64,000 nt of DNA from an uncultured Desulfobacterales bacterium (GTDB lineage Bacteria; Desulfobacterota; Dissulfuribacteria; Dissulfuribacterales; QOAL01), in the NCBI GenBank assembly GCA_964573615.1, contig CAZNKD010000008.1, forward strand, positions 12,026 to 76,025. The letters are read 5' to 3'. Numbering within the stretch: position 1 is the stretch's first letter; each line of letters begins with the position of its first letter. The notes below the pieces were generated by a model. It saw nothing but the letters and a program-made list of their open reading frames with translations, ran no database searches and was not told the DNA's origin. This document shows, piece by piece, positions 1,450 to 19,759 of this stretch. The translations under genes and the position numbers were made by a program.

Positions 1450-4014
1450 ATGGAGCCGGCTGCCATTCAGGAAAGGGAGATAATCCGCTTCCTCACCCCC
1501 AGACAGGCCCTTTCCGCCCTCTGGGACAAGGGACTCAAGGGGCGCCGGCTCCTTGAGCACCACAGCTCCCTTATAGACGGCTTCATACAGGATCGCTTTC
1601 ATGAGGTGGTAAAGGAGGGCGGGCAGACTCCTGTCGCCCTCGTCGCCCTGGGGGGCTATGGCCGCCAGGAGCTCTTTCCATTCTCCGACATAGACCTGCT
1701 CCTTCTCTATGCCCCTGAGAGCGAGGGAATCATCGAGGCGGTGACCGATGCCGTCTTCTATCCCTTGTGGGATGCCGGTCTCGACGTCGGCCATGGGGTG
1801 CGCACCATAGAGCAGTGCCTGGAGGACATGGAAGAGGACTTCTTCTTCCAGGTGGCCCTGCTGGATGCACGTTTCCTTTGCGGGGACAGGGCGCTCTTCT
1901 CCAGGCTGCAGGAGAGGTTTCGTGCCTGGTTCAGCCAGGGCAGGCGGCGCAGGTTTGCCGAAGACATGATGGCTCACCGCCTCGAGCGCCACAAGCGTTT
2001 TGGCGATCACACCTACATGCTCGAGCCAAACATAAAGGAGTCCAGGGGCGGGCTTCGCGATCTTCAGAGCATGCTCTGGACCGCCCAGGTGCTCTTTGGG
2101 CTGAAGGGCTTGTCCCGTTTCCAGGCAGAGGGTCTCATGACCTCCCAGGAGGCTGCGCAGGTCCAGGAGGCCACAGACCAGCTCATCATTGTAAGAAACC
2201 GCCTGCACTATGTGAGCGGCAGAAAGAACGATCGGCTCTATTTCGAGTATCAGGAGGAGATCGCAAAGGCCCTGCGCCACTACGATTCCCAGGGGCTGAT
2301 GGGGGTGGAGCGCTTCATGCGCTCGGTCCACAAGGCACTCAAGACCATATCCATCGCCTCTGATATGTTCTTCGAGCATGTCTCGGAGGTGATCTCTGCA
2401 AAGGGCCCCGGCGGCCCCAAGGTCAAGGACCTGGGCGGGGGGATCACCCTGGTGGACGGAAGGGTGGGCCTCAGGGATGCAGAGAGCATCAGGGCCAAGC
2501 CCTGGGCCGTGTTCCGGGCATTTGCCCTGGCTGCAAAGCAGGGGCGCGGCCTCCATTTCAGGGCCAGACGGCTCATCTCCGAGCTGGTGCCAGAGCTCAA
2601 AGAGAAGTGGCAGGGCTCAAAGAGATGCGCAAACTACTTCTTTCAGGTCCTGGAAAATGCCCAAGGCCCAGAGATCCTGGAGCAGATGCTCGACTGCGGG
2701 CTCCTGACCGCCTTCATCCCGGAAATGGAGCACCTGAGATATCTGGTCCTGCATGACATATATCACGTGAATACCGTGGACAGGCACAGCCTCGAGACAG
2801 TGGCCAACATAAACAGGCTGAAGCCCAAGGAGCCAGAGGTGTTCATGGAGATCGAGGCCCCCCATGTGCTGAGGCTTGCCGGCCTGCTCCACGATGTGGG
2901 AAAGGGAAGGGGCGGAAGACATGCAGAAAAGGGTGCCGAGGTGGTCAAGGAGATAGGCCCGCGCCTTGGGTTGAGCCAGGCAGAGACGGAATGTCTCTCC
3001 TTCCTCGTGGGGCAGCACCTTTTCATGATGGATACCGCCACCAGGCGCGATCTCGAGGACGAGTCGCTCATATTGAAGTGTGCACGCACCATAGGCACAC
3101 TGGAGCGGCTGAATATGCTCTATGTCCTGAGCGTTGCCGACGCCCTTGCCACAGGCCCAAATGCCTGGAACGAATGGAAGGCGGCCCTGATCCTCGAGCT
3201 ATATCACAAGATAGCCCACCTGATAGAACAGGCAGACCTCATCGATCCGGACAGGGTCGCGGCGGTGGAGTGGATGAAGCAGCAGGTGAGGCAGCGCCTT
3301 GGGGAAGATGCGGACGAATATCTCCCCCTGCTTCCTGAGGACTACCTCTTGAGTTTTACGCCCGAGGCCATCCTCCACCACCTGGAGCTGTCCAAGGGCC
3401 TGGCCGGCCGCAAGGTGATCTGCGTGCCCGAGAACCGGGGAGATTACTGGTCCATCCTTCTCATCACCCGGGACAGGACAGGGCTCCTCGCAAAGATATG
3501 CGGTACCTTTGCACTTTATGGCCTGGACATCCTGCAGGCCAATATCTTCACCCTCAAAAACGGCATCGTAGTGGATGTGCTTGACGTGCGTTCGATGGTG
3601 AACAGCTCCTTCGAGGACGTGGACTGGAAGGGGCTCGAAAGGGATCTGCTCCTTGCCATCGACAACCGGCTCGGGCTCTCCCACAGGCTCGCTGCCAAGT
3701 ACAGGCGCCTCGGTTCGGCCGCCAAGCCCAAGATAGCCAAGCAGCCAAAGGTGGTGATAGACAATCAGATGTCGGACTTCTACACCATCATCGAGATCTA
3801 CGCCGAGGAGTCTCCCTGCCTCCTCTACAGTGTCACCAAGATCCTGGCCGACTTCAGTATCAACATCTTCAAGGCCAAGATCGGCTCCAGTGCCGATCAG
3901 GTGGTGGATGTGTTCTATGTGCTGGACAGCCTGGGACAGAGGATAGAGGACGAGGGCTTCAAGCGCGAGGTGGAGCAGGCCCTGCTCTATGCATCACAGG
4001 CATGCCTGTTCTGA
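1450..4014 (+). CDS. glnD: [Protein-PII] uridylyltransferase/uridylyl-removing enzyme
   Basis: GGYGR...SDIDLL nucleotidyltransferase motif, KESRGGLRD, HD motif LLHDVGKG, two C-terminal ACT-like segments. Confidence 0.94.
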   Translation: MEPAAIQEREIIRFLTPRQALSALWDKGLKGRRLLEHHSSLIDGFIQDRFHEVVKEGGQTPVALVALGGYGRQELFPFSDIDLLLLYAPESEGIIEAVTDAVFYPLWDAGLDVGHGVRTIEQCLEDMEEDFFFQVALLDARFLCGDRALFSRLQERFRAWFSQGRRRRFAEDMMAHRLERHKRFGDHTYMLEPNIKESRGGLRDLQSMLWTAQVLFGLKGLSRFQAEGLMTSQEAAQVQEATDQLIIVRNRLHYVSGRKNDRLYFEYQEEIAKALRHYDSQGLMGVERFMRSVHKALKTISIASDMFFEHVSEVISAKGPGGPKVKDLGGGITLVDGRVGLRDAESIRAKPWAVFRAFALAAKQGRGLHFRARRLISELVPELKEKWQGSKRCANYFFQVLENAQGPEILEQMLDCGLLTAFIPEMEHLRYLVLHDIYHVNTVDRHSLETVANINRLKPKEPEVFMEIEAPHVLRLAGLLHDVGKGRGGRHAEKGAEVVKEIGPRLGLSQAETECLSFLVGQHLFMMDTATRRDLEDESLILKCARTIGTLERLNMLYVLSVADALATGPNAWNEWKAALILELYHKIAHLIEQADLIDPDRVAAVEWMKQQVRQRLGEDADEYLPLLPEDYLLSFTPEAILHHLELSKGLAGRKVICVPENRGDYWSILLITRDRTGLLAKICGTFALYGLDILQANIFTLKNGIVVDVLDVRSMVNSSFEDVDWKGLERDLLLAIDNRLGLSHRLAAKYRRLGSAAKPKIAKQPKVVIDNQMSDFYTIIEIYAEESPCLLYSVTKILADFSINIFKAKIGSSADQVVDVFYVLDSLGQRIEDEGFKREVEQALLYASQACLF

Positions 4015-4230
4015 TGCTTTTCAGGCGCCTCTATTTGGGATGAAAATGAATTTATTTTCACAAAAATGTGATAAAGTTGATGCCATTTTGTAAACATTGT
4101 GCTAAAAAATCAGTTTGTGAACTGAAGGCTGGGGGCCGGGCAAGGCCTCTGGCACATGGAGCGAAAAAGGCCCGTGGAGGTGTGCCTTCGCGGCAGAGTT
4201 AATAAACACTGGACAAGGAGGAAAGATTTT

Positions 4231-5643
4231 ATGGGTCCAAAAGACGTACTCGATCTGATCAAGGAGAAGAACATCAAGGTGGTGGACATCAGGTTCCTGG
4301 ACTTCCCAGGCGTCTGGCAGCACTTTACAGTGCCTGCCTCCGAGATTGATGAAGGCGCATTCGAGGATGGCTTCGGCTTCGACGGCTCCAGCATGAGGGG
4401 CTGGCAGCCCATCCATGCAAGCGACATGCTGGTGGTGCCCGATCCATCGACTGCCCAGATGGATCCCTTCTTCGAGGAGCCCACACTGGTGCTCATCGGA
4501 GATATCGCGGATCCTGTCACCCGTGAGGCATACAGCAGGGATCCCAGGAACATCGCCAAGAAGGCAGAGGCATATCTCAAGAGCACGGGCCTTGGTGACA
4601 CCTGCTACATCGGTCCTGAGGCAGAGTTCTTCATCTTCGATGATGTCCGCTACGACAATGCATCCAACAGCTGCTTCTATGAAGTGGACTCCATCGAGGC
4701 CATCTGGAACACGGGCCGTGACGAGTGCCCCAACCTTGGATACAAGGCCAGGCACAAGGAGGGTTACTTCCCTGTTCCCCCCACCGACAAGTTCCAGGAC
4801 ATGAGGACAGAGATGATGCTGGTCCTGGAGCAGCTGGGCATAGACGTGGAGTGCCAGCACCACGAGGTCGCCACCGCCGGCCAGGCCGAGATCGACATGC
4901 GCTTCAAGCCCCTCCTGCAGATGGGGGATCAGCTCATGTGGTTCAAGTATGTGCTGAAGAATGTGGCCTGGAAGCATGGCCGCACCGTCACCTTCATGCC
5001 CAAGCCGCTCTATGGTGACAATGGAACCGGTATGCACACCCATATCTCCATCTGGAAGGATGGCGAGCCCACCTTTGCTGGAGACAAGTATGCCGGACTT
5101 TCCGAGAGCGCCATGTACGCCATCGGCGGAATCCTCAAGCACTGCCGTGCACTGTGCGCCTTCACCAATCCCTCAACCAACTCTTACAAGAGGCTGGTGC
5201 CCGGCTTCGAGGCACCGGTGAACCTGGCCTACTCCAGCCGCAACAGGAGCGCCTCTGTCAGGATCCCCATGTATTCAGCCTCTCCCAAGGCAAAGAGGAT
5301 CGAGTTCAGGACCCCTGACCCCTCCTGCAACGGATACCTTGCATTCTCTGCAATGCTCATGGCCGTGCTGGACGGCATCGAGAACAAGATCGATCCCGGC
5401 GAGCCAATGGACAAGAACATCTACGATCTTCCGCCTGAAGAGCTGGCCAACATCCCATCGGCCCCAGGCTCCCTGGACGAGGCCCTCCAGGCCCTCAAGG
5501 ATGATCACGAGTTCCTGCTCAAGGGCGATGTCTTCACCCAGGACGTCATCGACATGTGGATCAACTACAAGACCGAAAACGAGGTCAATCCCGTCAAACT
5601 CCGTCCGCATCCCTATGAGTTCTTCCTCTACTACGACATCTAA
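4231..5643 (+). CDS. glnA: Glutamine synthetase type I
   Basis: [46 protein letters not shown] motifs; start moved to ATG 4231 behind AAGGAGG. Confidence 0.97.
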
Positions 5644-8208: not shown

Positions 8209-8880
8209 ATGAAAGTACAGATAGCACCGTCGATTTTGTCAGCCGATTTTGCAAGGCTCGGTCAGGAGATCAGGGCCGTGGAGGAGGCCGGAGCCGATCT
8301 CATCCATGTGGATGTGATGGATGGCCGGTTCGTGCCCAACATCACCATCGGCCCCCTTGTGGTTGAGGCGATCAGGCCGGTGACGGATCTTCCTCTCGAT
8401 GTGCACCTGATGATCGTCGAGCCCGACCGGTATGTGGAATCCTTCGCCAAGGCCGGTGCAGACATCATCACCGTCCATGTGGAGGCCTGCACCCATCTCC
8501 ACAGGAGCATCCAGGGCATCAAGGCATTGGGGGTTCGGGCAGGGGCCGTTCTCAACCCGGCCACGCCCCTCGATACCATAGAATATGTCCTGGAGGATCT
8601 GGATATGGTGCTGATAATGAGTGTGAATCCGGGCTTTGGCGGGCAGCTCTTCATCCCCTCGGCCCTCGAGAAGATCAGGCGCTTGAGGCGCATGATAGAT
8701 GAGGCCGGCCTGGACGTCACCATAGAGGTGGATGGCGGGGTAAACCTGTCCACCATAAGGGATGTGGTGGCCGCAGGGGCAGATATCTGTGTGGCCGGCT
8801 CCGCTGTCTTCGGCAGGGATGACTATGCAGAGGCCATCAGGGAGCTAAAGGGTGCATGTCTTGAGCGGGCCGAGTGCTGA
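8209..8880 (+). CDS. rpe: Ribulose-phosphate 3-epimerase
   Basis: [37 protein letters not shown]. Confidence 0.97.
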
Positions 8881-8910
8881 TGCCCTTTTGTCAGAGGAAT
8901 GTAGGGGGCC

Positions 8911-9816
8911 TCAGGGGGATATCCTGAGGGAAGGCAGGTCGGGGATGGCCTTGGCCTCCATGAACCGTTCGATGCCGTCAAGGATCCTCAGGGCGCTTGC
9001 CGGCTCCACCAAAGTGGCCGTGCCCACCTGTATGGCACTGGCCCCTGCCATCAGGAACTCCACTCCGTCCTGCCAGGTGGTGATGCCGCCTATTCCTATC
9101 ACAGGGATCTGAACGCACCTCGCCACCTGCCAGACCATCCGTAGGGCCACGGGTTTTATGGCCGGACCAGAAAGGCCGCCAAAGATGTTGCCGAGCACCG
9201 GCCTTTTCCTCTCTATGTCGATGGCCATGCCCAGAAGGGTGTTGATGAGGCTGATGCCATCTGCCCCTTCGTCTTCGACTGCCCTTGCTATCTCGCACAC
9301 ATTCGTGACATTGGGGGATAGCTTTACGATTACAGGCAGATCGGTCGCCTCCTTCACCCGCCGTGTCACCTGGGCGGCAAGCCGGGCCGAGGTGCCGAAG
9401 GCAACTCCGCCCTCCTTCACGTTGGGGCAGGAGATGTTGACCTCCAGGGCGGCAATGCCTTCGACGCCTGACAGCCGCCTGGCGATCTGGCCATATTCAT
9501 CGAGGCTGCTTCCGAGGATGTTGACTATCACGGCACACCCAAGCCCTTGGAGCCAGGGCAGCATGGAGGCCAGGAACTTCTCCACGCCCACGTTTTCAAG
9601 GCCTATGGCATTGAGAAGGCCGCAGGGTGTTTCATAGACCCTGGGCGGCGGATTCCCGGCCCGGGGCTCCAGGGAGATCCCCTTCGTCACTATTCCCCCT
9701 ATGCGCTCAAGATCGAGCAGATCGGCCAGCTCGGCCCCGTAGCCGCAGGTGCCAGAGGCCAGCAGGACCGGATTTTTGAGCCTTATAAAGCCCAGGTCGG
9801 CGGTGAGATCAGTCAT
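8911..9816 (-). CDS. pyrD: Dihydroorotate dehydrogenase family 1B catalytic subunit
   Basis: NPVLLASGTCG, LNAIGLENVG, EVNISCPN, VKLSPNV, GGLSGPAIKP; adjacent to pyrK. Confidence 0.95.
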   Translation of the reverse strand: MTDLTADLGFIRLKNPVLLASGTCGYGAELADLLDLERIGGIVTKGISLEPRAGNPPPRVYETPCGLLNAIGLENVGVEKFLASMLPWLQGLGCAVIVNILGSSLDEYGQIARRLSGVEGIAALEVNISCPNVKEGGVAFGTSARLAAQVTRRVKEATDLPVIVKLSPNVTNVCEIARAVEDEGADGISLINTLLGMAIDIERKRPVLGNIFGGLSGPAIKPVALRMVWQVARCVQIPVIGIGGITTWQDGVEFLMAGASAIQVGTATLVEPASALRILDGIERFMEAKAIPDLPSLRISP

Positions 9817-10674: not shown

Positions 10675-11583
10675 TCAGCCCCCCATGAAGATGGCCGCCG
10701 TGGTAGAGGTGAAAAGGATTATGCTTATCGCTGCGTTCAGCCGGAAAAAGGCGATGTTCATGCGGCTCAGATCGCTCGGGGTTATGACCCGTCTCTGAAG
10801 TACCAGCAGGATGAAGGTGATGGCCGTTCCGAGATAATAGATCCACGAAAGCCCTGCGCTAAGCCCGGCCGCCACAAAGGCGGCAAAGGCGATGGCATGA
10901 AAGAGGGAAGAGACCATGAAGGCCTTCTCCACCCCTATGGATGCAGGGATCGAGTGGAGCCCCTCCTTGCGATCGAACTCCGCATCCTGACAGGCATAGA
11001 GTATGTCGAAGCCCGCTATCCAGAACATCACCCCCAGACTCAGGAGGATGGGGGTGAGGGTTATGGAGTTCTGCACAGCTATCCATCCGGCAGTGGGTGT
11101 GATTCCTATGCCAAGGCCGAGAAAGAGGTGGCACAAGGGGGTAAAGCGCTTGGTATAGGAGTAGAAGACCAGGATGGCCAGGATGAAGGGCGAGAGCTTG
11201 AGGGCAAGGGGGGTGAGATTTGCACAGGCGAGGAAATAGACCAGGGCCGCCACTGCCACCATGATCCATGCCTCGGCCTGTCCGATTGCCCCTGTAACAA
11301 GCGGCCTGTCAGCGGTACGCGGGTTTTTGGCATCAAAGTGGTAGTCCACGATCCTGTTTACGCCCATGGCCACGGTGCGCCCCCCTACCATGGCCAGCAG
11401 GATGAAGAGGCAACTTTTGGGCTCAGGCACCCCCCTTGCCGCGAGAAATGCCCCTACGTATGCAAAGGGCAGGGCAAAGATGGTGTGTTCAAACTTGATC
11501 ATGTCCAGGAAGACCTTGATCTTCCTGAATGTGCCGGCCTTGATGTCTCTTTTTTCCTTACTTTTTTCCTTAACTGGTGACAT
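10675..11583 (-). CDS. ubiA: UbiA-family prenyltransferase (MqnP-like)
   Basis: KFEHTIFALPF, NRIVDYHFDAKNPRTADRP, DILYACQDAEFD. Confidence 0.88.
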   Translation of the reverse strand: MSPVKEKSKEKRDIKAGTFRKIKVFLDMIKFEHTIFALPFAYVGAFLAARGVPEPKSCLFILLAMVGGRTVAMGVNRIVDYHFDAKNPRTADRPLVTGAIGQAEAWIMVAVAALVYFLACANLTPLALKLSPFILAILVFYSYTKRFTPLCHLFLGLGIGITPTAGWIAVQNSITLTPILLSLGVMFWIAGFDILYACQDAEFDRKEGLHSIPASIGVEKAFMVSSLFHAIAFAAFVAAGLSAGLSWIYYLGTAITFILLVLQRRVITPSDLSRMNIAFFRLNAAISIILFTSTTAAIFMGG

Positions 11584-11679
11584 ACCGGTAAAAGGCTACG
11601 CTGTTGAGGGACTCTTTTCAAGTACAGAAGTGGGATGGAAGGATGGATGGAACATGGCGTTGCTAATGAGAATCATTTT

Positions 11680-11811
11680 TTGTGCAAATTGTGCAATCTT
11701 TTTGAAAAATATAATTCCATAAAGAATTATTTTTTCTTGATTCCTGCAATTTCCTGTGTTAAACCTCTCTTTAAGAAAAAATTCTTTGGGCAGTTTGCAC
11801 AATTTGCACAA
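11680..11811. repeat. Perfect 17-bp inverted repeat flanking a 98-bp AT-rich spacer
   Basis: TTGTGCAAATTGTGCAA at 11680-11696 and TTGCACAATTTGCACAA at 11795-11811; each arm is TTGTGCAA twice with 9-bp period. Confidence 0.95.
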
Positions 11812-11825
11812 TGAAAGCAGATAGA

Positions 11826-12341
11826 ATGTATAAAATAGCCATATTCGGCTGCGGCAATCTCCTTTTTGGTGACGATGGGGTGGGGCCTGCGGTTATAGAG
11901 GCCCTGAAAGGTCAGCCTCTGCCGGATTATGTCATGGTGGAAGATGTGGGCACTGGCATAAGGGAGAGGCTCTTTGACTATCTGCTGACGGCCGATCTCC
12001 GCCCTGATCTTATCATTATTGTGGATGCTGTGGATTTTGCCGGCATGCCGCCTGGCGAGGTCTTCGAGTTGCGGCCCAGGGATATACCTGCCCGGAAGGT
12101 ACACGATTTTTCCCTGCATCAGTTCCCTACTGTGAACATGTTGGCAGAGCTCGAGGAGGAGGCCGGGACCTGTGTGAAGATCCTGGCAGTGCAGGTCGAG
12201 TCTATCCCGGAAGAGGTAAGCCCTGGCCTGTCTCGCCCTGTTCAGGAGGCAGTGGGGCAGGTGTGTGAGATGATCTCCGAAATGGTTTGGTGCAAGAGCA
12301 ACAGAGAGGTGATCCATGATCTACGAGTTTCGTGTAATTGA
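11826..12341 (+). CDS. Hydrogenase maturation endopeptidase (HycI/HybD family)
   Basis: GCGNLLFGDDGVG, DVGT, IIIVDAVD, HDFSLH; start could be ATG 11811 or 11826. Confidence 0.9.
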   Translation: MYKIAIFGCGNLLFGDDGVGPAVIEALKGQPLPDYVMVEDVGTGIRERLFDYLLTADLRPDLIIIVDAVDFAGMPPGEVFELRPRDIPARKVHDFSLHQFPTVNMLAELEEEAGTCVKILAVQVESIPEEVSPGLSRPVQEAVGQVCEMISEMVWCKSNREVIHDLRVSCN

Positions 12342-13755
12342 TCTGGCAGAAGAGTTTGGTGTCCATAGGAATACCATCCGCAACTGGATCAAGTCTGGAA
12401 CCATTCCTGCCAAGGAGGGGCCTGGCCGGCGATATCTGATGGATTGGTCCGACTATCAGCGTCTATGTGAAAAGTTCGGCAAGACCCCGCGCATGCCCCA
12501 CACCGGCAGCAGACCTGAGCATCAGCCACAGGAAGGGCCTACCACCATAGAGCTGCAGCCGGATTCCACGCGTTTTTATCCAGATGCCACATGGGCGGAT
12601 GTATGTCTCACATGTGGCACCTGCGCCAGTGCTTGTCCTATCGCTGGTGTAGATGGCCTGGATCCAAGAAAGATCGTCCGGATGGCTCTTCTCGGTCTGG
12701 AGGATGAGCTGATGAATACGGACTGGATATGGAAATGTACCATGTGTGCCAAGTGTGAAGAGGCCTGCCCCATGGATGTCGAGATCGTCCAGCTCATCAG
12801 AAAGATCCGTTCCTTAAGGCCCAGGGACGAAGTCCCAGGCCCGATCCACAAGGGGGTGGTCAATTGTCTGGAACGGGGCAACAATCTCGGGATACCGAAG
12901 GATGATTTTCTATTCTTGTTGGAGGACCTTGGCGACGAACTGGCCCAAGAGTGTTGCCCCGGTTTTTCCACGCCGGTCGATGTGCATGGTGCGAGAATCC
13001 TGGTAACGGTCAATTCAAAGGAACCATTTGCCGAGCCCGATGACATGAAGTGGTGGTGGAAGATCTTCTATGCCGCCGGAGAATCCTGGACGATCTCCTC
13101 CGAGAACTGGGAAGGAGTCAATTGGGGGCTCTTTTCCGGTGATGACGATGCCTTGAGGACCATAGTGGGCCGTATAGTGGATAATATGAAGCGGCTCAAC
13201 TGTGAAGGATTGCTGCTTCCGGAGTGAGGTCATGCATATTTTGCAACCCGGTACGGGTTGACCAAGTGGTTCCCTGATGTCCTGGAAAAGTACAAGATCT
13301 ATTCAGTGTTCGATCTTCTGCTGGAGTATTACAACGAGGACAGGATCACTATTGACGGGGGAGTCCACAAGCAGCGCACCACCTATCATGATCCCTGCAA
13401 CTATGGCAGAAAATCCCTCAAAACCTTTGGGCATGGCTACTTTGAGGAAGGGCGTATAATCACCAAGGCCTGCGCCCCGGACTTTGTGGATATGGAACCG
13501 AATCGCCAGGGTAACTACTGCTGTGGGGCTGGCGGAGGGGCGTGGGCTATGCCCTTCAAGACAGAGCGGGTCTATTACGGCAGGATCAAGGCCCGCCAGA
13601 TTCAGGAGACCGGTGCCGAGCTGGTGATTGCTCCGTGTCATAACTGCCGTGATCAGATAAAGAAGTCCCTCAATCAGGAATATCAACTGGGCATAGAGGT
13701 GAAATACCTGTGGGAGCTGGTGGCCGATTCCCTGGTGCTGCCGGTGAAAAACTGA
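12316..13755 (+). CDS. Selenoprotein: N-terminal excisionase/MerR-like HTH fused to 2x[4Fe-4S] and CCG (HdrD/HmcF-like) domains; Sec at TGA 13225-13227
   Basis: ORFs 12316..13227 and 13258..13755 share a frame; read-through gives LLLPE-U-GHAY (family PECGH); [46 protein letters not shown]; SECIS-like hairpin follows. Confidence 0.85.
13228..13263 (+). promoter_or_regulatory. Putative bacterial SECIS element 1
   Basis: CAACCC-GGTAC-GGGTTG hairpin at 13244-13260; loop GG 23-24 nt after the UGA. Confidence 0.75.
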
Positions 13756-13825: not shown

Positions 13826-16800
13826 ATGGCAAGCAAGGAAAGGATTGGCTCAGTCATGGTGGTAGGTGGGGGAGTGGCAGGTATTCAGGCTGCCCTCGAT
13901 CTGGCTGATTCGGGCTATTTCGTATATCTGGTGGAGCGAAGTGGTGCAATAGGCGGCGCAATGGCCCAGTTGGACAAGACCTTTCCCACCAATGATTGCG
14001 CAATGTGAATACTGGCGCCCAAGCTGGTTGAGTGCGGTCGGCACTTAAATATAAAACTTATGACACTGTGCGAGGTTATGGATGTAACCGGCACAGAGGG
14101 AGATTTCACTGTAGAGATAAGGGAGTATCCGCGCTATGTGGATCCGGACAAATGCATTGCCTGTGGCATTTGTGCGGAAAAGTGTCCCAAGAAGGTGGTG
14201 GATGATTACAATGCTGGCACTGCCAAGAGAAAAGCCATCTATGTAAAATATGCCCAGGCTGTACCCCTCAAGTATCAGATAGATCCGGAACACTGCATAA
14301 GGCTGAATAAACCGGGAAAGTGCGGCTTCTGTGAGAAGTTTTGCCCCTCAGGGGCCATAAACTTTAATGATGACGAAAAGATCCACCATATAAAAGTGGG
14401 CTCCATAATACTGGCCCCGGGTTTTGACTGCTTCGATCCAAAAGAGGCAGGGGTCTGGGGCTATGGAAGCTATCCAAATGTGATCACATCCCTCCAGCTC
14501 GAGCGCTATCTGTCCGCATCCGGCCCCACAGAGGGGCATCTGATGCGTCCTTCAGACGGCAAGCCCGTGAGGAAAATGGCATTTCTTCAGTGTGTGGGCA
14601 GCAGGGATCAGAACAGATGCAATAATGAGTATTGCTCCTCGGTCTGCTGCATGTATGCAATCAAGGAGGCCATTATAGCCAAGGATCATGTGCCCGGCCT
14701 GGATGCCACCATATTTTTCATGGACATGCGCACCTTTGGCAAGGACTTCGAGCGTTACTATGAAAATGCCAAGAGCCAGCACGGTATCCGGTTTGTGAGA
14801 TGCAGGGTTCATGGTGTCGAACCACACGGGCAGGAAGGGGATCTGCGTCTTCATTATATCAATGAAGAGGGCAGACAGATAGAAGAGTACTATGATTTGG
14901 TGGTTCTTTCTGTTGGTCTAGAGACCCCGCAACAGGTGAAGGCTCTGGCCGAAAAGATCGGAATCAAGCTTACCCCCCATAACTTCGCCGCAACAAGCAC
15001 TTTCTCTCCCGTGCTCACCTCGCGGCCAGGTGTCTTCACCTGCGGGGCCTTTGCAGGCCCAAAAGATATTCCCCAGTCTGTCATGGAGGGATCGGCAGCG
15101 GCAGCAGGTGCAGCAGATATCCTGGCACCTGCCAGATTCAGCCTGACCAGGGAGAGGAGCTTCCCGCCGGAGAGGGACATTTCCGGCCAGGAACCAAGGA
15201 TCGGGGTCTTCGTATGTCATTGCGGCTCCAATATAGCAGGAGTCGTGGATGTGGAGGAAGTGGCGGAGTACGCGGCCGGCCTTCCCGGTGTAGTGCATGT
15301 GGAGAGGAATCTCTTTACATGCTCCCAGGATACTCAGGATCTCATGCGTAAGCGTATCGAGGAGCACGGCCTCAACAGGATAGTGGTTGCTGCATGTACG
15401 CCGCGGACCCATGAGCCCCTGTTTCGCGAGACTATCAAGGCCGCTGGTCTTAATGAATATCTGTTGGAGATGGCCAACTTGAGAAACCAGGACTCCTGGG
15501 TCCATTCCGATGACCCGGCAAAGGCCACCAAGAAGGCCAAGGATCTAGTCCGCATGGCAGTTGCAAAAGTGGCCCTCCAGGAGCCTCTGAAGGCAGAAAG
15601 TGTGGCGGTCAATCCCTCTGCCCTGGTGGTGGGAGGTGGTGTGGCCGGCATGGAGAGCGCCCTGAGTCTTGCCAGACAGGGTTTTGAGGTGCATCTGGTG
15701 GAGAAGCGCCGGTATCTGGGCGGCAATGCACGCCACCTGAACCATTCCTGGACCTATGAGGATATCCCTAGGTACCTAGATGGACTCGTGAAGGAGGTCA
15801 CGGAAAATCCCTTTATCCATGTCCATATGGAATCGGAAGTGATTGAGGCCAAGGGATTTGTTGGCAACTTCCTTACCACTATTAGGAAAGGTGGCAAGAA
15901 GATAGAGATCAGCCATGGCATCGGCATAATAGCCATCGGAGGCCGTCCTTACAGGCCCAAGGGTGAATATGGCTACGGTGAGTATGAGGAGGTCTTCACC
16001 AGTATCGAGTTTGATGCAGTCAAGAAGGCCGGAGACTTCAGGGTCAAAAGAGGGCGCACCTTTGTCTTCATCCAGTGTGTAGGCTCGAGGCAAGAGGAGC
16101 GTATGTACTGCTCCAGAGTCTGTTGCACGCACTCGGTTCAAGCGGCCATTGAGCTGAAGAAGGAGGATCCCTCCAGGTCTGTATATATCCTCTATAGAGA
16201 TATGCGCACCTATGGTCAAAGGGAGTCCCTCTTCAAGGAAGCAAGGATGCTCGGCGTGGTCTTTATCAACTATGAACTGCATGGCAGGCCAAAAGTTAAA
16301 AGAAACAGAGATGGACTGACTGTAGAGGTGTGGGATCATGTGCTCCACAGGCCCATGATAATCAATACGGACATCCTGGTGCTGGCTACAGCCATACTTC
16401 CCGATCCGAAGGCTCGGGAGCTTGCAAAGCTCTACAAGGTTCCAGTGGATGGTGACGGTTTTTTCCAAGAGGCCCACGCAAAGCTGCGGCCGGTGGATTT
16501 CCCTGTTGACGGCCTTTTCATGGCTGGTCTGGCCCATTATCCCAAACCCGTGGAGGAGGCCATTGCCCAAGCCAAGGCTGCGGCAGCCAGGGCGGCTTCG
16601 GTCCTTTCCAGGAATGAGATCGTCCTGGAGGCGACCAAGGCCCAAGTGGTTCCGGAACGGTGTGATGGATGCGGACTTTGTATAGATGTGTGTCCTTATG
16701 GAGCCATTACCCTCATTGAGGGAAGTGACCAGGAAGACAATGTCTGGAAACGAGTGGAGATCAACAAGGCACAGTGCAAGGGATGTGGCCTGTGCCAGGG

Positions 16801-16885
16801 TACTTGTCCAAAGGAAGGGGTCTATGTGGCCGGTTTCTCCACAGAGCAGATCCGGGCACAGATCAAGGCAGCCCTGGCAGCTTGA
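13826..16885 (+). CDS. hdrA: Heterodisulfide reductase subunit A, long two-FAD-domain form; selenoprotein with Sec at TGA 14006-14008
   Basis: ATG 13826 behind AAGGAGG; [18 protein letters not shown] continues in frame into ORF 14060..16885; two GGGVAG and two CVGSR motifs, [10 protein letters not shown], two ferredoxin modules. Confidence 0.92.
14009..14048 (+). promoter_or_regulatory. Putative bacterial SECIS element 2
   Basis: TTGAGTGC-GGTCG-GCACTTAA 8-bp stem at 14028-14048; GGUC loop resembles the E. coli fdhF SECIS apical loop. Confidence 0.75.
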
Positions 16886-16921: not shown

Positions 16922-17338
16922 ATGAGTTATGAACCAAAGATCATAGCATTCTGCTGCAACTGGTGCTCATATGCCGCAGCGGATCTGGCAGGGATCTCGC
17001 GCATGCAGTATCCGCCGAACATACGGATTATAAGGGTTATGTGCTCCGGGATGGTTCATCCAGATATGGTGCTTGAGGCCCTGGAAAAGGGCGCTGACGG
17101 TGTCATGGTCCTTGGGTGACACCTGGGGGAGTGTCATTACCAGGATGGTAATTACAAGGCTCTTTCCAGGGCAGAGATGGTGGAGGAGGTTCTGGAAGAC
17201 TTCGGTTATGAAAAGGAGCGCTTCATGATTGCTTGGTGCAGCGCTGCCGAACCTGACAAGTTTGTTGAGGCAGTCACCAGGATGGCCAAGCGGGTCAAGA
17301 CCCTGGGCCCTCACAGACACAGCCTGCAGGCAGCTTAG
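16922..17338 (+). CDS. mvhD: [2Fe-2S] subunit MvhD/FlpD; selenoprotein with Sec at TGA 17117-17119
   Basis: [38 protein letters not shown] (family GCHxGDCHY); frame stays open to TAG 17336-17338. Confidence 0.92.
17120..17152 (+). promoter_or_regulatory. Putative bacterial SECIS element 3
   Basis: ATTACCA-GGA-TGGTAAT hairpin at 17136-17152; loop GG 24-25 nt after the UGA. Confidence 0.75.
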
Positions 17339-17369
17339 GGAAGCCTGCAGGATTCCAAAGGAGCTAGAT

Positions 17370-18296
17370 ATGGCAATAACGGTTGCAGAAGAGTGGTTGA
17401 GCGCATGTTCTGGTTGTGAAATAGCCATTCTCAACATGGGCGAGAGCCTTGTAGATCTGCTCAACAGGCTTGAACTAGTCCACATGCCTGTGCTCATGGA
17501 CCATAAATATTTCGGCAGGGATGGCCTCAACAGGGAGCTGGAGATTCCTAATGCCGACATAGGGATCGTTTCTGGTGCAGTGGCCAACGAAGAGCATGTT
17601 GAGGTGCTTGAAGAGATGAGAAAAAAGTGCCGCCTCCTTATTGCCCTGGGCACCTGTGCCACGCATGGAGGAATTCCGGCCCTTATCAACTGCTGGACTA
17701 TGGAAGAGGCCTTGGAAACGATATTCCATACCCCGACGACCGATGAGTTCGGCTCCTATCCCGAAGAGGGGGTCCCGGCCATGCTGGACAGGGTCTATGC
17801 GATTGATGAAAAGGTCCATGTGGATCTGTTGATCCCTGGATGCCCTCCAAATCCTGCCCATATTGCCGGTGTGTTGGAGGCCTTGCTCGATGGAGACTCT
17901 CCTGTGCTTCCTGAAAAGAGTGTATGTGATTCCTGTCCCACGGTAAGGAAGGGAAAAGGGGAGGTGAAAGAGGTCAGGAGGTTCTTGGAAAATGCGGATT
18001 TCGTCCCATCGGAACCCCTGGACAGGATGCAGTGTCTGCTTGAGCAAGGCTTCATGTGTATGGGGCCAGTGACTGCTGCAGGTTGTGCCCATGACGGGGC
18101 CCCGCGTTGCATTGCTGCACGTGTGCCATGCAGAGGATGTTTTGGCCCGGTTCGCCATGATGGCAATCAGATGCTGGATATGATGAATGCCCTTGCCAGC
18201 AATGGGATAGACTGGAGATCGGTGGTGGACAGGCGGTCTTTGTTGAGGTTTTCGGGCGCTCATGGGCTCTTGCGGCCCCTTGGCAGGAGATCGTGA
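17370..18296 (+). CDS. mvhG: Group 3 [NiFe(Se)] hydrogenase small subunit
   Basis: ACSGCE, ALGTCATHGG, IPGCPP, CDSC, CLLEQGFMCMGPVT...C...CRGC; start set at ATG 17370 behind AAGGAG. Confidence 0.92.
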   Translation: MAITVAEEWLSACSGCEIAILNMGESLVDLLNRLELVHMPVLMDHKYFGRDGLNRELEIPNADIGIVSGAVANEEHVEVLEEMRKKCRLLIALGTCATHGGIPALINCWTMEEALETIFHTPTTDEFGSYPEEGVPAMLDRVYAIDEKVHVDLLIPGCPPNPAHIAGVLEALLDGDSPVLPEKSVCDSCPTVRKGKGEVKEVRRFLENADFVPSEPLDRMQCLLEQGFMCMGPVTAAGCAHDGAPRCIAARVPCRGCFGPVRHDGNQMLDMMNALASNGIDWRSVVDRRSLLRFSGAHGLLRPLGRRS

Positions 18297-18313
18297 CTCG
18301 GGAGGACTCTATA

Positions 18314-19759
18314 ATGGACAAGGTTATACAGATTCAGCCGGTTACCCGGATCGAGGGGCATGCCAGTATCAAGATCCATCTAGATGATGATGGCAACGTC
18401 AGGGATGCCAAACTCCATATCATGTCCTTGAGGGGCTTCGAGAAGTTCATCGAGGGCCGTCCTGCCGAGGAGGTGCCGCGTATCGTAAACAGGATCTGCG
18501 GCATATGTCCCTGGATGCACCATCTTGCCTCGTGCAAGGCCGTGGATGCATGTTTTGGGATCACACCCCCTCCGGCAGGCTGGAGGCTCAGGGAGTTGTG
18601 CCAGATTATGGCCCATATCAGCGACAAGATCCTCCATTTCTTCTTCCTGGCAGCCCCTGATTTCGTATTGGGGCCAGACAGCGACTATGCTGTAAGAAAT
18701 GTGATAGGGATAGTTAAACAGGCCCCTGAGCTGGCCTCTATGGTGGTGAAGATGCGCCAGCTCGGACAGCAGATGCTGGAGGGCTTTGCGGGCAAGGCCA
18801 TTCATCCAGTGGCTGGGGTTACCGGCGGTTTTTCAAAACCCATGACAGAGGATGAGAGGAAGGAGCTTCTGAAGGGTGCTGGGGAGCTACTGGATTTTGC
18901 TCTGTATGCCCTGGATTTTGCAAAGGAGTCTGTTTTCAGCCGGTATGATGAGATTATCAGGGAGCTTGGCACCATTGAGACAGGTTTCCTCGGGACCGTC
19001 GATAATGATGGCGCCCTACGTCTGTATGATGGGAAACTCAGGTTGATGAGGCCCGATGGCTCTATCACGGAGTTCGATCCTGAAGAATATACAGACTATA
19101 TCAGCGAACATGTAGCCCAATGGTCCTATGCCAAGATGCCCTATGCCAAGGTGTGGAATGAGGGTTTCAGCCTGGATCTCGATGCCCCCAAGGGGATTTA
19201 CAGGGCCAATACGCTTGCCAGGATCAATGTAGCCGACAAGATGGCCACTCCAAGGGCACAAGAGGCCCTGGAAGAGTTCAGAGAGAGATTTGGCCGTCCT
19301 GCCCAGAGCACACTCCTATATCATTGGGCTCGTCTTATTGAGCTTGTGTACGTGTGTGAAAGGAGTGTCGAACTTCTGAACCATCCGGAGATAACAGATC
19401 CTGAGGTGCGGACCCCGGCAACTCCGAAGGCTGGTCGGGGTGTAGGATGTGTCGAGGCCCCTAGGGGCACACTGATCCATGATTATGTCACTGATGCCAA
19501 TGGATGCATCCAGAAGGCCAACATGATCGTGGGCACTACACACAACATTGCTCCTATGAATCTGAGCGTGGCCAGCGCTGCCAAGGAACTGATAAAAAAG
19601 GGAGAGATAGATGAAGGGATTCTGAACAGGATCGAGATGGCTGTAAGGGCATACGATCCGTGAATCTCATGCGCCACTCACCGCCTGGATGGCGGAATAC
19701 CTGTGACCCTGTCCATACTGGATTCCAAGGGACATATCATCAAGGAAATGGCCGGTTAG
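18314..19759 (+). CDS. mvhA: Group 3c-type [NiFeSe] hydrogenase large subunit; Sec at TGA 19661-19663, followed by a cleavable C-terminal extension
   Basis: TRIEGH, L1 motif RICGICP, EAPRGTLIH, L2 motif RAYDP-U-ISCATH; frame open to TAG 19757-19759. Confidence 0.93.
19664..19695 (+). promoter_or_regulatory. Putative bacterial SECIS element 4
   Basis: CCGCC-TGGAT-GGCGG hairpin at 19681-19695; loop GG 24-25 nt after the UGA. Confidence 0.72.

Follow-up and report, generated by a model that had tools for sequence, protein, structure and literature searches.

Trigger enzymes such as PutA, BirA, NadR and RbkR carry a DNA-binding domain and regulate their own pathway, and excisionase (Xis) proteins line up head to tail on tandem sites. 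In the case of the Streptomyces regulator BldC, the protomers line up head to tail on 2-4 direct repeats, one on each 9-bp unit, the consensus being AATTNNNN(C) and a natural unit being CATTTGCAC (PMC5859096). The element described here is a pair of mirror-image arms, each composed of 9-bp units, that brackets the promoter region of a heterodisulfide-reductase / [NiFeSe]-hydrogenase (hdr-mvh) operon in a 64,000-nucleotide stretch (hereafter the window) of contig CAZNKD010000008.1 from an uncultured Desulfobacterales bacterium, the source of which is a hydrothermal-vent metagenome. Comparison with related loci indicates that the arms are very probably conserved protein-binding operators. With moderate confidence, we favour a model in which the operator pair is bound by a helix-turn-helix (HTH) domain tethered to an enzyme subunit encoded by the operon, which would thereby be autoregulated. 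In the literature searched, we found no published account of the regulation of these bacterial Hdr-Mvh operons, and no published description of an HTH on Hdr subunits or of this operator.

Structure and conservation of the mirrored arms

The arms are perfect 17-mers and exact reverse complements of each other, i.e. TTGTGCAAATTGTGCAA on the left (OL, 11680-11696) and TTGCACAATTTGCACAA on the right (OR, 11795-11811), separated by 98 nt of very AT-rich DNA in a window with a G+C content of ~55%. A repeat finder extends the match inward to 20 nt at 95% identity (11680-11699 and 11792-11811) and resolves each arm into two TTGTGCAA 8-mers, in direct repeat with a 9-bp period. Four of the five copies of TTGTGCAA in the 64 kb fall in the arms, with 1.5 copies expected, and the tandem form has no further copy in the window with up to three mismatches allowed, save for a degenerate third unit, TTGGGCAGT. 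Perfect inverted repeats within 150 bp reached at most 15 bp in 60 first-order Markov simulations of 64 kb that matched the composition of the window; when the 64 kb was simulated wholly at the local AT-rich composition, a 17-bp inverted repeat arose in just 2 of 60 runs. The arm pair is beyond chance, and the preliminary description of this locus as a perfect 17-bp inverted repeat of tandem 9-bp units about a 98-bp AT-rich spacer is confirmed by the sequence, the repeat finder and the simulations.

Relative to the predicted transcription start, OL is positioned at approximately -92 to -76 and OR at approximately +24 to +40, with the final A of OR being the first base of the ATG at 11811, which is in frame and conserved among orthologues. 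The centre-to-centre distance between OL and OR is ~115 bp, or ~11 helical turns. The degenerate unit TTGGGCAGT is the counterpart of the inner unit, AGGCACTGT, in the Desulfobulbales consensus GAGGCACTGTTTGCACAATG. When read in the BldC register, the unit of the window is AATTTGCAC, which fits AATTNNNN(C), and the 9-bp period is well supported.

A second, imperfect inverted pair had been reported within the spacer, and it exists (11721-11735 and 11773-11787; 15 nt, 87% by the repeat finder). In loci L004 and L005, which are the two closest relatives of the window, its left half (GAATWATTYTT) is kept, but its right partner is not. Because just the left half is conserved, we regard the pair as an A/T tract together with a compositional coincidence; the tract is possibly UP-element-like.

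Homologues of the HTH-HdrD-like protein encoded by the operon number more than 900, mostly of ~307 aa (cut at a TGA codon) or ~485 aa (read through). A scan of GTDB representative genomes yielded 80 loci, mostly from Desulfobulbales together with some Desulfobacterales metagenome-assembled genomes (MAGs), 75 of which were usable for arm counts; because these loci share ancestry, their number is a measure of conservation and not of independent events. At more than 50 of the 80 loci, TTGCACAA is present ~513 nt upstream of the HTH gene, exactly at the start of the protease gene. The usual form of the right arm, GAGGCACTGTTTGCACAATG, has a pair of units in 9-bp phase and then the start codon, and is nearly invariant, with adjacent positions being free. 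Over the 75 loci a block of 18-20 nt before the start codon is near-invariant although protein identity is only ~70%, and non-coding identity at such protein divergence is itself evidence of selection. In other lineages the right arm is composed of two or three NNGCACAAN units, as in L037 (TTGCACAAC ATGCACAAG AGGCACAAC ATG).

The clustering of the core motif is pronounced, with GCAC-N5-GCAC occurring 67 times in 19.9 kb of upstream DNA versus six times in the remaining 661 kb of the 75 loci. A proximal GCAC pair with 8-9-bp spacing is present at 60 of the 75, i.e. the repeat does recur upstream of orthologous operons, the check by which the preliminary description had proposed that a reading of the arms as twin head-to-tail operators be judged. 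An upstream arm, in the form of inverted GTGC at -135 to -100 or -85 to -68, is found at 46 of the 75 loci, with same-orientation cores in these positions at seven; the usual left-arm sequence in the relatives is AATGTGCATATTATGCTAAT. The GTGC arm falls in the -125 to -121 bin at 30 loci, and the centre-to-centre distance is ~115 bp in the majority, as in the window, whereas one subgroup has GTGC at -81/-72, giving an arm distance of ~73 bp or ~7 turns. The twin-operator reading is favoured by this conservation of unit, orientation and position across several Desulfobacterota orders, with the arms being candidate sites with respect to binding.

When the window is compared with L004 and L005, the arms are the only long invariant non-coding blocks, with OL unchanged despite diverged flanks. 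A contig of a second species, present in both Logan runs, can be aligned to the window solely at 11680-11701, at 11792-11815 and over the initial 85 nt of the HTH gene; its two arm matches are 89 nt apart, versus 90 in the window, and its flank identifies it as belonging to the L004 species. Since this contig matches the arms while its surroundings have diverged, both arms are exactly preserved in two related organisms from the same vents. Perfect 17/17 arms are restricted, among the 46 loci with both arms, to the window, L004, L005 and L020. The L020 arms (~3850-4000 in the Desulfobacterales MAG contig CAZXAK010000051.1) are built from a different unit, i.e. TTGTGCATTTTGTGCAT / ATGCACAAAATGCACAA, with four copies of TTGTGCAT compared with the four copies of TTGTGCAA in the window, and within each genome with perfect arms all four units are identical. 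L020 is an independent lineage in which all four units have changed together. Identity among the units is consistent with four equivalent binding sites and is not a requirement of inversion. In a Desulfopila MAG (L082, 3700-4000 of JBHEOR010000002.1) the protease gene is lost; a left-arm-type repeat, TGTGCGAATTGTGCTTG, and a promoter remain, ~200 nt before the HTH gene, and there is no clear proximal arm.

An HTH-only search of 1.8 billion representative proteins returned only 271 related clusters. The same type of HTH (GVHRNT[IV]RNWIK) is present at the N terminus of HdrA (P0170, P0179), on a second HdrD-like subfamily (P0147) and at the C terminus of a HycI protease (P0237). The operons encoding HTH-HdrA fusions (Desulfosarcina variabilis and others) have 2-5 GCAC units in 9-bp phase before the first gene in six of six cases, with an inverted GTGC pair at -139/-130 in three of them. 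In the Syntrophobacterales (Desulforhabdus amnigena, Desulfacinum hydrothermale and two MAGs), GCAC-N5-GCAC is found in all four operons, where it directly follows a TTGACA-N17-TATxxx promoter and is close upstream of the ATG; in D. hydrothermale, where the protease gene is absent, the repeats directly precede the HTH gene. The GCAC cores are thus placed between a sigma-70-type promoter and the first start codon in each of the three sets (60/75, 6/6 and 4/4 loci, respectively). The proximal arm is the universal element, which travels with the HTH whichever subunit carries it, and OL is an auxiliary site in some lineages.

The fused HTH and its operon

Within the operons, HTH_17 is the only DNA-binding domain always encoded in cis, with exactly one copy of this type per locus, and no second regulator gene recurs as a neighbour across the ~90 loci. 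We consider it likely that the binder of the arms is this fused HTH. The preliminary description had stated that the operon encodes an Xis/MerR/BldC-like HTH, and this is borne out, both by a profile score above the family cut-off and by a modelled BldC/Xis-like fold. The domain scores 32.0 bits with PF12728 over residues 9-41 (gathering cut-off 27), with relatives scoring 38-45 bits. An AlphaFold2 model of residues 1-65 has a predicted local distance difference test (pLDDT) value of 88 and a beta-alpha-alpha-beta-beta-alpha winged-helix topology, the Foldseek neighbours of which include RacA, BldC-DNA complexes, Pukovnik Xis, lambda gpNu1 and MerR N-domains. Comparison with the BldC structures 6AMK and 6AMA gives a target-normalised template-modelling (TM) score of 0.69-0.75 and a root-mean-square deviation of ~2.3 A, with a Foldseek probability of 0.97-1.0. 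At the sequence level, the HTH profile retrieves Pukovnik Xis from the PDB sequences with E 1.4e-4 and BldC weakly (E 0.4-0.6); hhalign against BldC, using a sequence whose numbering agrees with PMC5859096, gives 81% probability and E 1.2e-5 over 31 columns.

A 15-residue segment of the HTH is shared without change by the window and 79 of the 80 related loci, whereas the whole proteins are only ~70% identical, and H17, R18, N19, N23, W24 and I25 do not vary between the HdrD-like and HdrA fusions. The near-invariance of the recognition helix matches the invariant GCAC core. As regards covariation of helix and unit, the sole helix variant, in L077 (GVRRNIIRDWI), occurs with a TTTACACAA unit (n=1). 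In the full-length model of P0091, a read-through homologue with Ser at the position of the first TGA, residues 56-97 have low confidence, which suggests a flexible tether of ~40 residues between the predicted domain and the remainder of the subunit.

Coordinates of the operator, promoter and gene features in the window
Feature	Position	Strand	Remarks
UbiA-family prenyltransferase	10675-11583	-	Left neighbour
OL, candidate upstream operator arm	11680-11696	-	Units TTGCACAAT/TTGCACAA on minus strand, inverted with respect to the operon
A/T tract, left half of inner pair	11721-11735	+	Just upstream of the -35
Predicted sigma-70-type promoter	11737-11765	+	-35 TTGATT 11737-11742; 17-nt spacer
Predicted promoter, downstream elements	11757-11765	+	TG 11757-11758; weak -10 TAAACC 11760-11765; predicted start near 11772
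Degenerate third unit TTGGGCAGT	11786-11794	+	In phase with OR; 3 mismatches
OR, candidate promoter-proximal operator arm	11795-11811	+	Units TTGCACAAT/TTGCACAA in 5' leader
HycI-type hydrogenase maturation protease	11811-12341	+	First gene; Pfam PF01750, E 6e-20
HTH_17 winged helix	12316-12480	+	Residues 1-55 of HdrD-like subunit; PF12728
HTH-HdrD-like gene	12316-13755	+	HTH_17 + 2x[4Fe-4S] + CCG; in-frame TGA 13225-13227
HdrA, flavin/FeS subunit	13826-16885	+	In-frame TGA 14006-14008; carries no HTH
MvhD/FlpD gene	between 16885 and 17229		Split by further TGA; called as 65-aa and 53-aa pieces
MvhG-like small subunit	17229-18296	+	
[NiFe(Se)] hydrogenase large subunit	18293-19663	+	

The promoter was placed by alignment with L004/L005 (TTGATT ... 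TGTTATTAT) and with the Desulfobulbales form, TTGCAC-17-TGGTATTTT, the conserved form between the arms being TTGCAC or TTGATT, 17 nt and TGnTATTTT/TATTAT. A consensus scan gave another candidate, TTGAAA-17-AATTAT (11702-11730), and did not list the TTGATT promoter; both candidates sit between the arms, and OR is in the leader with either. At most Desulfobulbales loci (L012-L047 and others) the -35 is TTGCAC, ~55 nt upstream of the proximal unit. With the same six bases and orientation as the operator unit, this -35 could be overlapped by an extra unit.

The promoter region had been described as divergent, between ubiA and the hydrogenase operon, which is true locally; ubiA is, however, a neighbour particular to this genome, not a conserved one, and the upstream genes of L004 are co-directional with the operon. 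Two perfect direct repeats lie in the vicinity of ubiA, i.e. two copies of CTTTTTTCCTTA within 11549-11572 at its 5' end, which encode KEKSKEK on the minus strand, and two copies of GGATGGAA, 12 bp apart, within 11633-11652 upstream of it. With respect to the protease, gene callers chose the second ATG (11826), whereas the conserved ATG is that at 11811. No Shine-Dalgarno-like sequence is present within 20 nt of ATG 11811 in the window or in L004/L005; in Desulfobulbales, GAGG occurs 13 nt upstream of the conserved ATG, within the inner operator unit.

The HTH-HdrD-like gene product belongs to the HdrD/fused HdrCB type, with matches to Fer4_8 (E 2e-12) and CCG (E 1.8e-12) on the two TGA-joined halves of its frame. 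The in-frame TGA codons of the HTH-HdrD-like, HdrA and MvhD/FlpD genes are presumably selenocysteine codons; their contexts are ..LLLPE-TGA-GHAYF.. in the HTH-HdrD-like gene and ..TNDCAM-TGA-ILAPK.. in HdrA. Because gene callers cut at TGA, N-terminal Hdr fragments are named 'excisionase family DNA binding protein', and many database entries of that name, or of the name 'helix-turn-helix domain-containing protein', appear to represent the N-terminal portions of Hdr subunits that are selenoproteins.

Competing explanations and a proposed mechanism

The preliminary description also offered a reading in which the arms delimit an invertible promoter, i.e. a recombinase would flip 11697-11794 and so switch the operon or ubiA by phase variation. 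The perfect 17-20-bp inverted repeats that flank an AT-rich promoter segment, and the independent occurrence of perfect arms of different sequence in L020, speak for such a mechanism, but we now regard it as very improbable. All five assemblies or contig sets (window, ENA, two Logan runs and JGI), which represent at least three samples, have a single orientation, the comparison being of assembled contigs, in which a rare inverted variant could be missed. Across the region, the ENA and Logan assemblies do not differ from the window; the JGI contig, from another sample, has one single-nucleotide polymorphism and carries the left arm and 69 nt of the spacer in the same orientation before it ends. 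No strand-switch joints were seen when the contigs of the two runs were aligned to the region, and the promoter faces the operon in ~85 relatives. The mean arm complementarity at the 46 loci with both arms is 9.8/17, mostly too imperfect for inversion, yet the arm positions are kept; the tandem duplication within the arms would have no role in inversion, and in L004 a flipped promoter would face the ends of co-directional genes. The segment, at 98 bp, is also short by comparison with known invertible promoter segments. No site-specific recombinase was found among the genes flanking the element or the related loci, the window as a whole not having been annotated for one. A further proposal is that the arms act in RNA, either by pairing into a 17-bp stem that occludes the start codon or as leader repeats recognised by an RNA-binding protein. 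In favour of such an element, OR is in the 5' leader, includes the start codon and has no Shine-Dalgarno sequence near it; against it, OL lies upstream of the conserved promoter, complementarity is confined to the GTGC/TGC cores with uncompensated differences (e.g. ATGC opposite GCAC), there is no Rfam match and the predicted leader folds no better than shuffled sequences (z = -0.2). We consider that an RNA-level role has very little to commend it. The conserved placement of the arms, their complementarity of only ~10/17 elsewhere and their single orientation together argue that they are operators rather than inversion sites or an RNA hairpin. It is similarly implausible that the arms reflect chance, a small mobile element or sites for a general factor, such as DnaA, Rex, CRP/FNR or sigma-54. 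Chance is excluded by the simulations. Some resemblances to general-factor sites exist, with ATTTGCACA fitting the relaxed DnaA box TTWTNCACA at 8/9 positions, TTGTG resembling Rex and CRP half-sites, and GGCAC...TTGCA resembling sigma-54 elements. The DnaA-box reading, however, fails at the inner units, AGGCACTGT. Rex and CRP-FNR operators (TTGTGAA-N4-TTCACAA and TGTGA-N6-TCACA) are palindromic, whereas the units here are direct and vary in number from two to five. For a sigma-54 promoter, GGCACTGTTTGC gives GG-N8-GC and not the 10-nt spacing, and the site abuts the ATG. A classical MerR operator, i.e. a palindrome within a 19-20-bp spacer, was likewise rejected, since the predicted spacer is 17 bp and the repeats are direct and outside the core promoter. 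With respect to a mobile element, there are no other copies in the window and no target-site duplication, and the position is orthologous in many genera.

More serious is the possibility that the operators are genuine but are bound by an unlinked regulator, responsive to hydrogen, redox state or selenium, with the fused HTH having another role, e.g. as a protein-protein interface; we judge this unlikely, though far less so than the preceding alternatives. Several observations count in its favour, or weigh against binding by the fused HTH or against the wider model. On the metagenome contig Ga0180007_10003482 (L137), two promoters within a hydrogenase gene cluster contain motif-like sites, with no GVHRNTxRNWI-type HTH encoded in the 14.7 kb fetched; these sites may belong to a wider regulon or to an unlinked binder. 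In the related enzyme BamF a winged helix serves as a subunit interface. The residues with which BldC reads bases are Arg30 (the major-groove G contact) and Lys26, the aligned counterparts of which are the invariant Asn23 and Asn19, respectively, so that base readout must differ from that of BldC, even if the binding mode may be shared. No orthologous operons without the HTH were found, the best 120 matches listed all carrying it, so that co-occurrence of the motif with the operon and with the HTH is confounded. Family-wide, the AT quartet, AATT, is only partly kept. The four Syntrophobacterales loci have no clear upstream arm, so looping cannot be general. Set against an unlinked regulator are the observations that no alternative regulator gene is conserved beside ~90 loci, that the HTH type switches subunit (HdrD-like or HdrA) yet stays with the motif, once per operon, that the 9-bp head-to-tail period is a hallmark of BldC-type winged helices and that the recognition helix is far better conserved than the rest of the protein.

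The L137 cluster (3756-4441, 8480-8920) encodes an HdrD-like protein, HycI and the NiFe small and large subunits, together with a divergent HycI-MvhD-FrhB-like operon; TTGCACAAATTGCACAAT occurs 24 nt before a 214-aa open reading frame of no known kind, and ATTGTGCAAAATATGCCAAC and TTTGCACAATTTGGG occur in the divergent intergenic region. A search of metagenome contigs for exact copies of TTGCACAANTTGCACAA returned at least 119 stretches, none of which, except L137, is beside HTH, HycI or Hdr genes; with 16 specified bases being too few for that collection, the search is uninformative. Longer tandem arrays of the 9-bp TTGCACAAN, with from three to at least five copies, occur on the metagenome contigs L202, L157, L150 and L194, which are unrelated and have no Hdr, HycI or HTH genes near the arrays.

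In the mechanism that we propose, the hdr-mvh operon is under the control of an operator pair mirrored around its sigma-70-type promoter, with the arms being built of two 9-bp units on the left and two or three on the right, arranged head to tail and sharing an invariant GCAC core. The HTH tethered at the N terminus of the HdrD-like iron-sulfur subunit would dock on both arms, perhaps with one domain per unit, head to tail, as for BldC. Occupancy of OR would block transcription, and OL, an integral number of helical turns upstream, would stabilise binding, perhaps via a loop that encloses the promoter. The enzyme subunit would thus repress its own operon, in the manner of PutA-type trigger enzymes, with the redox state of its iron-sulfur clusters, its assembly into the Hdr-Mvh complex or its mere abundance being candidate signals. 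Negative autoregulation is proposed because the sites lie downstream of the predicted start and have a phased upstream partner; in combination with looping it is a tentative proposal, somewhat less probable than not. We are yet more cautious about the possibility that the Hdr-Mvh electron-bifurcating complex is itself a transcription factor, with a BldC-like module having moved between its HdrD-like and HdrA subunits, which we consider speculative.

If the model holds, the amount, assembly or redox state of an enzyme would directly set its own synthesis, possibly via promoter looping, and there would be a testable regulatory circuit for the Hdr-Mvh-type flavin-based electron-bifurcating hydrogenases of sulfate reducers, syntrophs and their relatives. 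The few enzymes known to control their own genes would gain a further member, and anaerobic energy metabolism a new, widespread class of enzyme-tethered autoregulators, one hidden because selenocysteine codons truncate the gene calls and the fragments are annotated as 'excisionase family'. The BldC binding mode would be extended from a small actinomycete developmental regulator to an enzyme-fused domain in Desulfobacterota. The operator/promoter module may be of use as a genetic part for Desulfobacterota. More generally, a perfect inverted repeat around a promoter need not mean an invertible switch.

Relationship to described regulators

Repression loops, such as those of gal, lac, deo and ara, resemble the arrangement proposed here in that two operators bracket a promoter at integral helical turns (~115 bp apart, or ~73 bp in one subgroup). 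The gal, lac, deo and ara sites are, however, palindromes for dimers or tetramers, whereas the arms here are direct repeats that are mutually inverted, and looping between them is a prediction; unlike the paired-operator loops, some lineages lack an upstream arm. The phage excisionases, including lambda Xis and Pukovnik Xis (Gp37, PDB 4J2N), have the same winged helix, with Pukovnik Xis being the closest solved relative by profile, and these Hdr proteins bear the name 'excisionase family DNA binding protein' in the source databases. In contrast with the excisionases, there is no integrase, attachment site or prophage context here, and the domain is part of a conserved energy-metabolism operon.

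The similarities to Streptomyces BldC (PDB 6AMK/6AMA) extend from the fold, a MerR-like winged helix common to both by model comparison, to the recognition-helix Trp (Trp31 in BldC, the invariant Trp24 here), the basic G-[RK]-[RK]-Y wing and a probable operator composed of a variable number of 9-bp head-to-tail units. BldC is a free-standing protein of 68 residues, whereas the domain described here is the N terminus of a 480-residue iron-sulfur enzyme subunit or, elsewhere, of HdrA. The units here have an invariant GCAC core, unlike BldC sites, and two inverted arms around a promoter have not been described for BldC. Because it is fused and is without the base-contacting residues, the HTH domain is not a strict member of the BldC family, and its BldC-like working is hypothetical.

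Of the features of a trigger enzyme, the HTH-enzyme fusion is read directly from the gene and operators in its own promoter are indicated by conservation, whereas binding of these by the fused domain, and control of that binding by the state of the enzyme, are predictions. PutA relies on a ribbon-helix-helix domain together with a flavin switch and relocation to the membrane; here a winged helix is attached to an FeS/CCG subunit within a multi-subunit complex. As in PutA, the DNA-binding domain is N-terminal on a redox enzyme and there would be multiple operator sites in its own promoter region, an analogy that suggests autoregulation responsive to the redox or assembly state of the enzyme.

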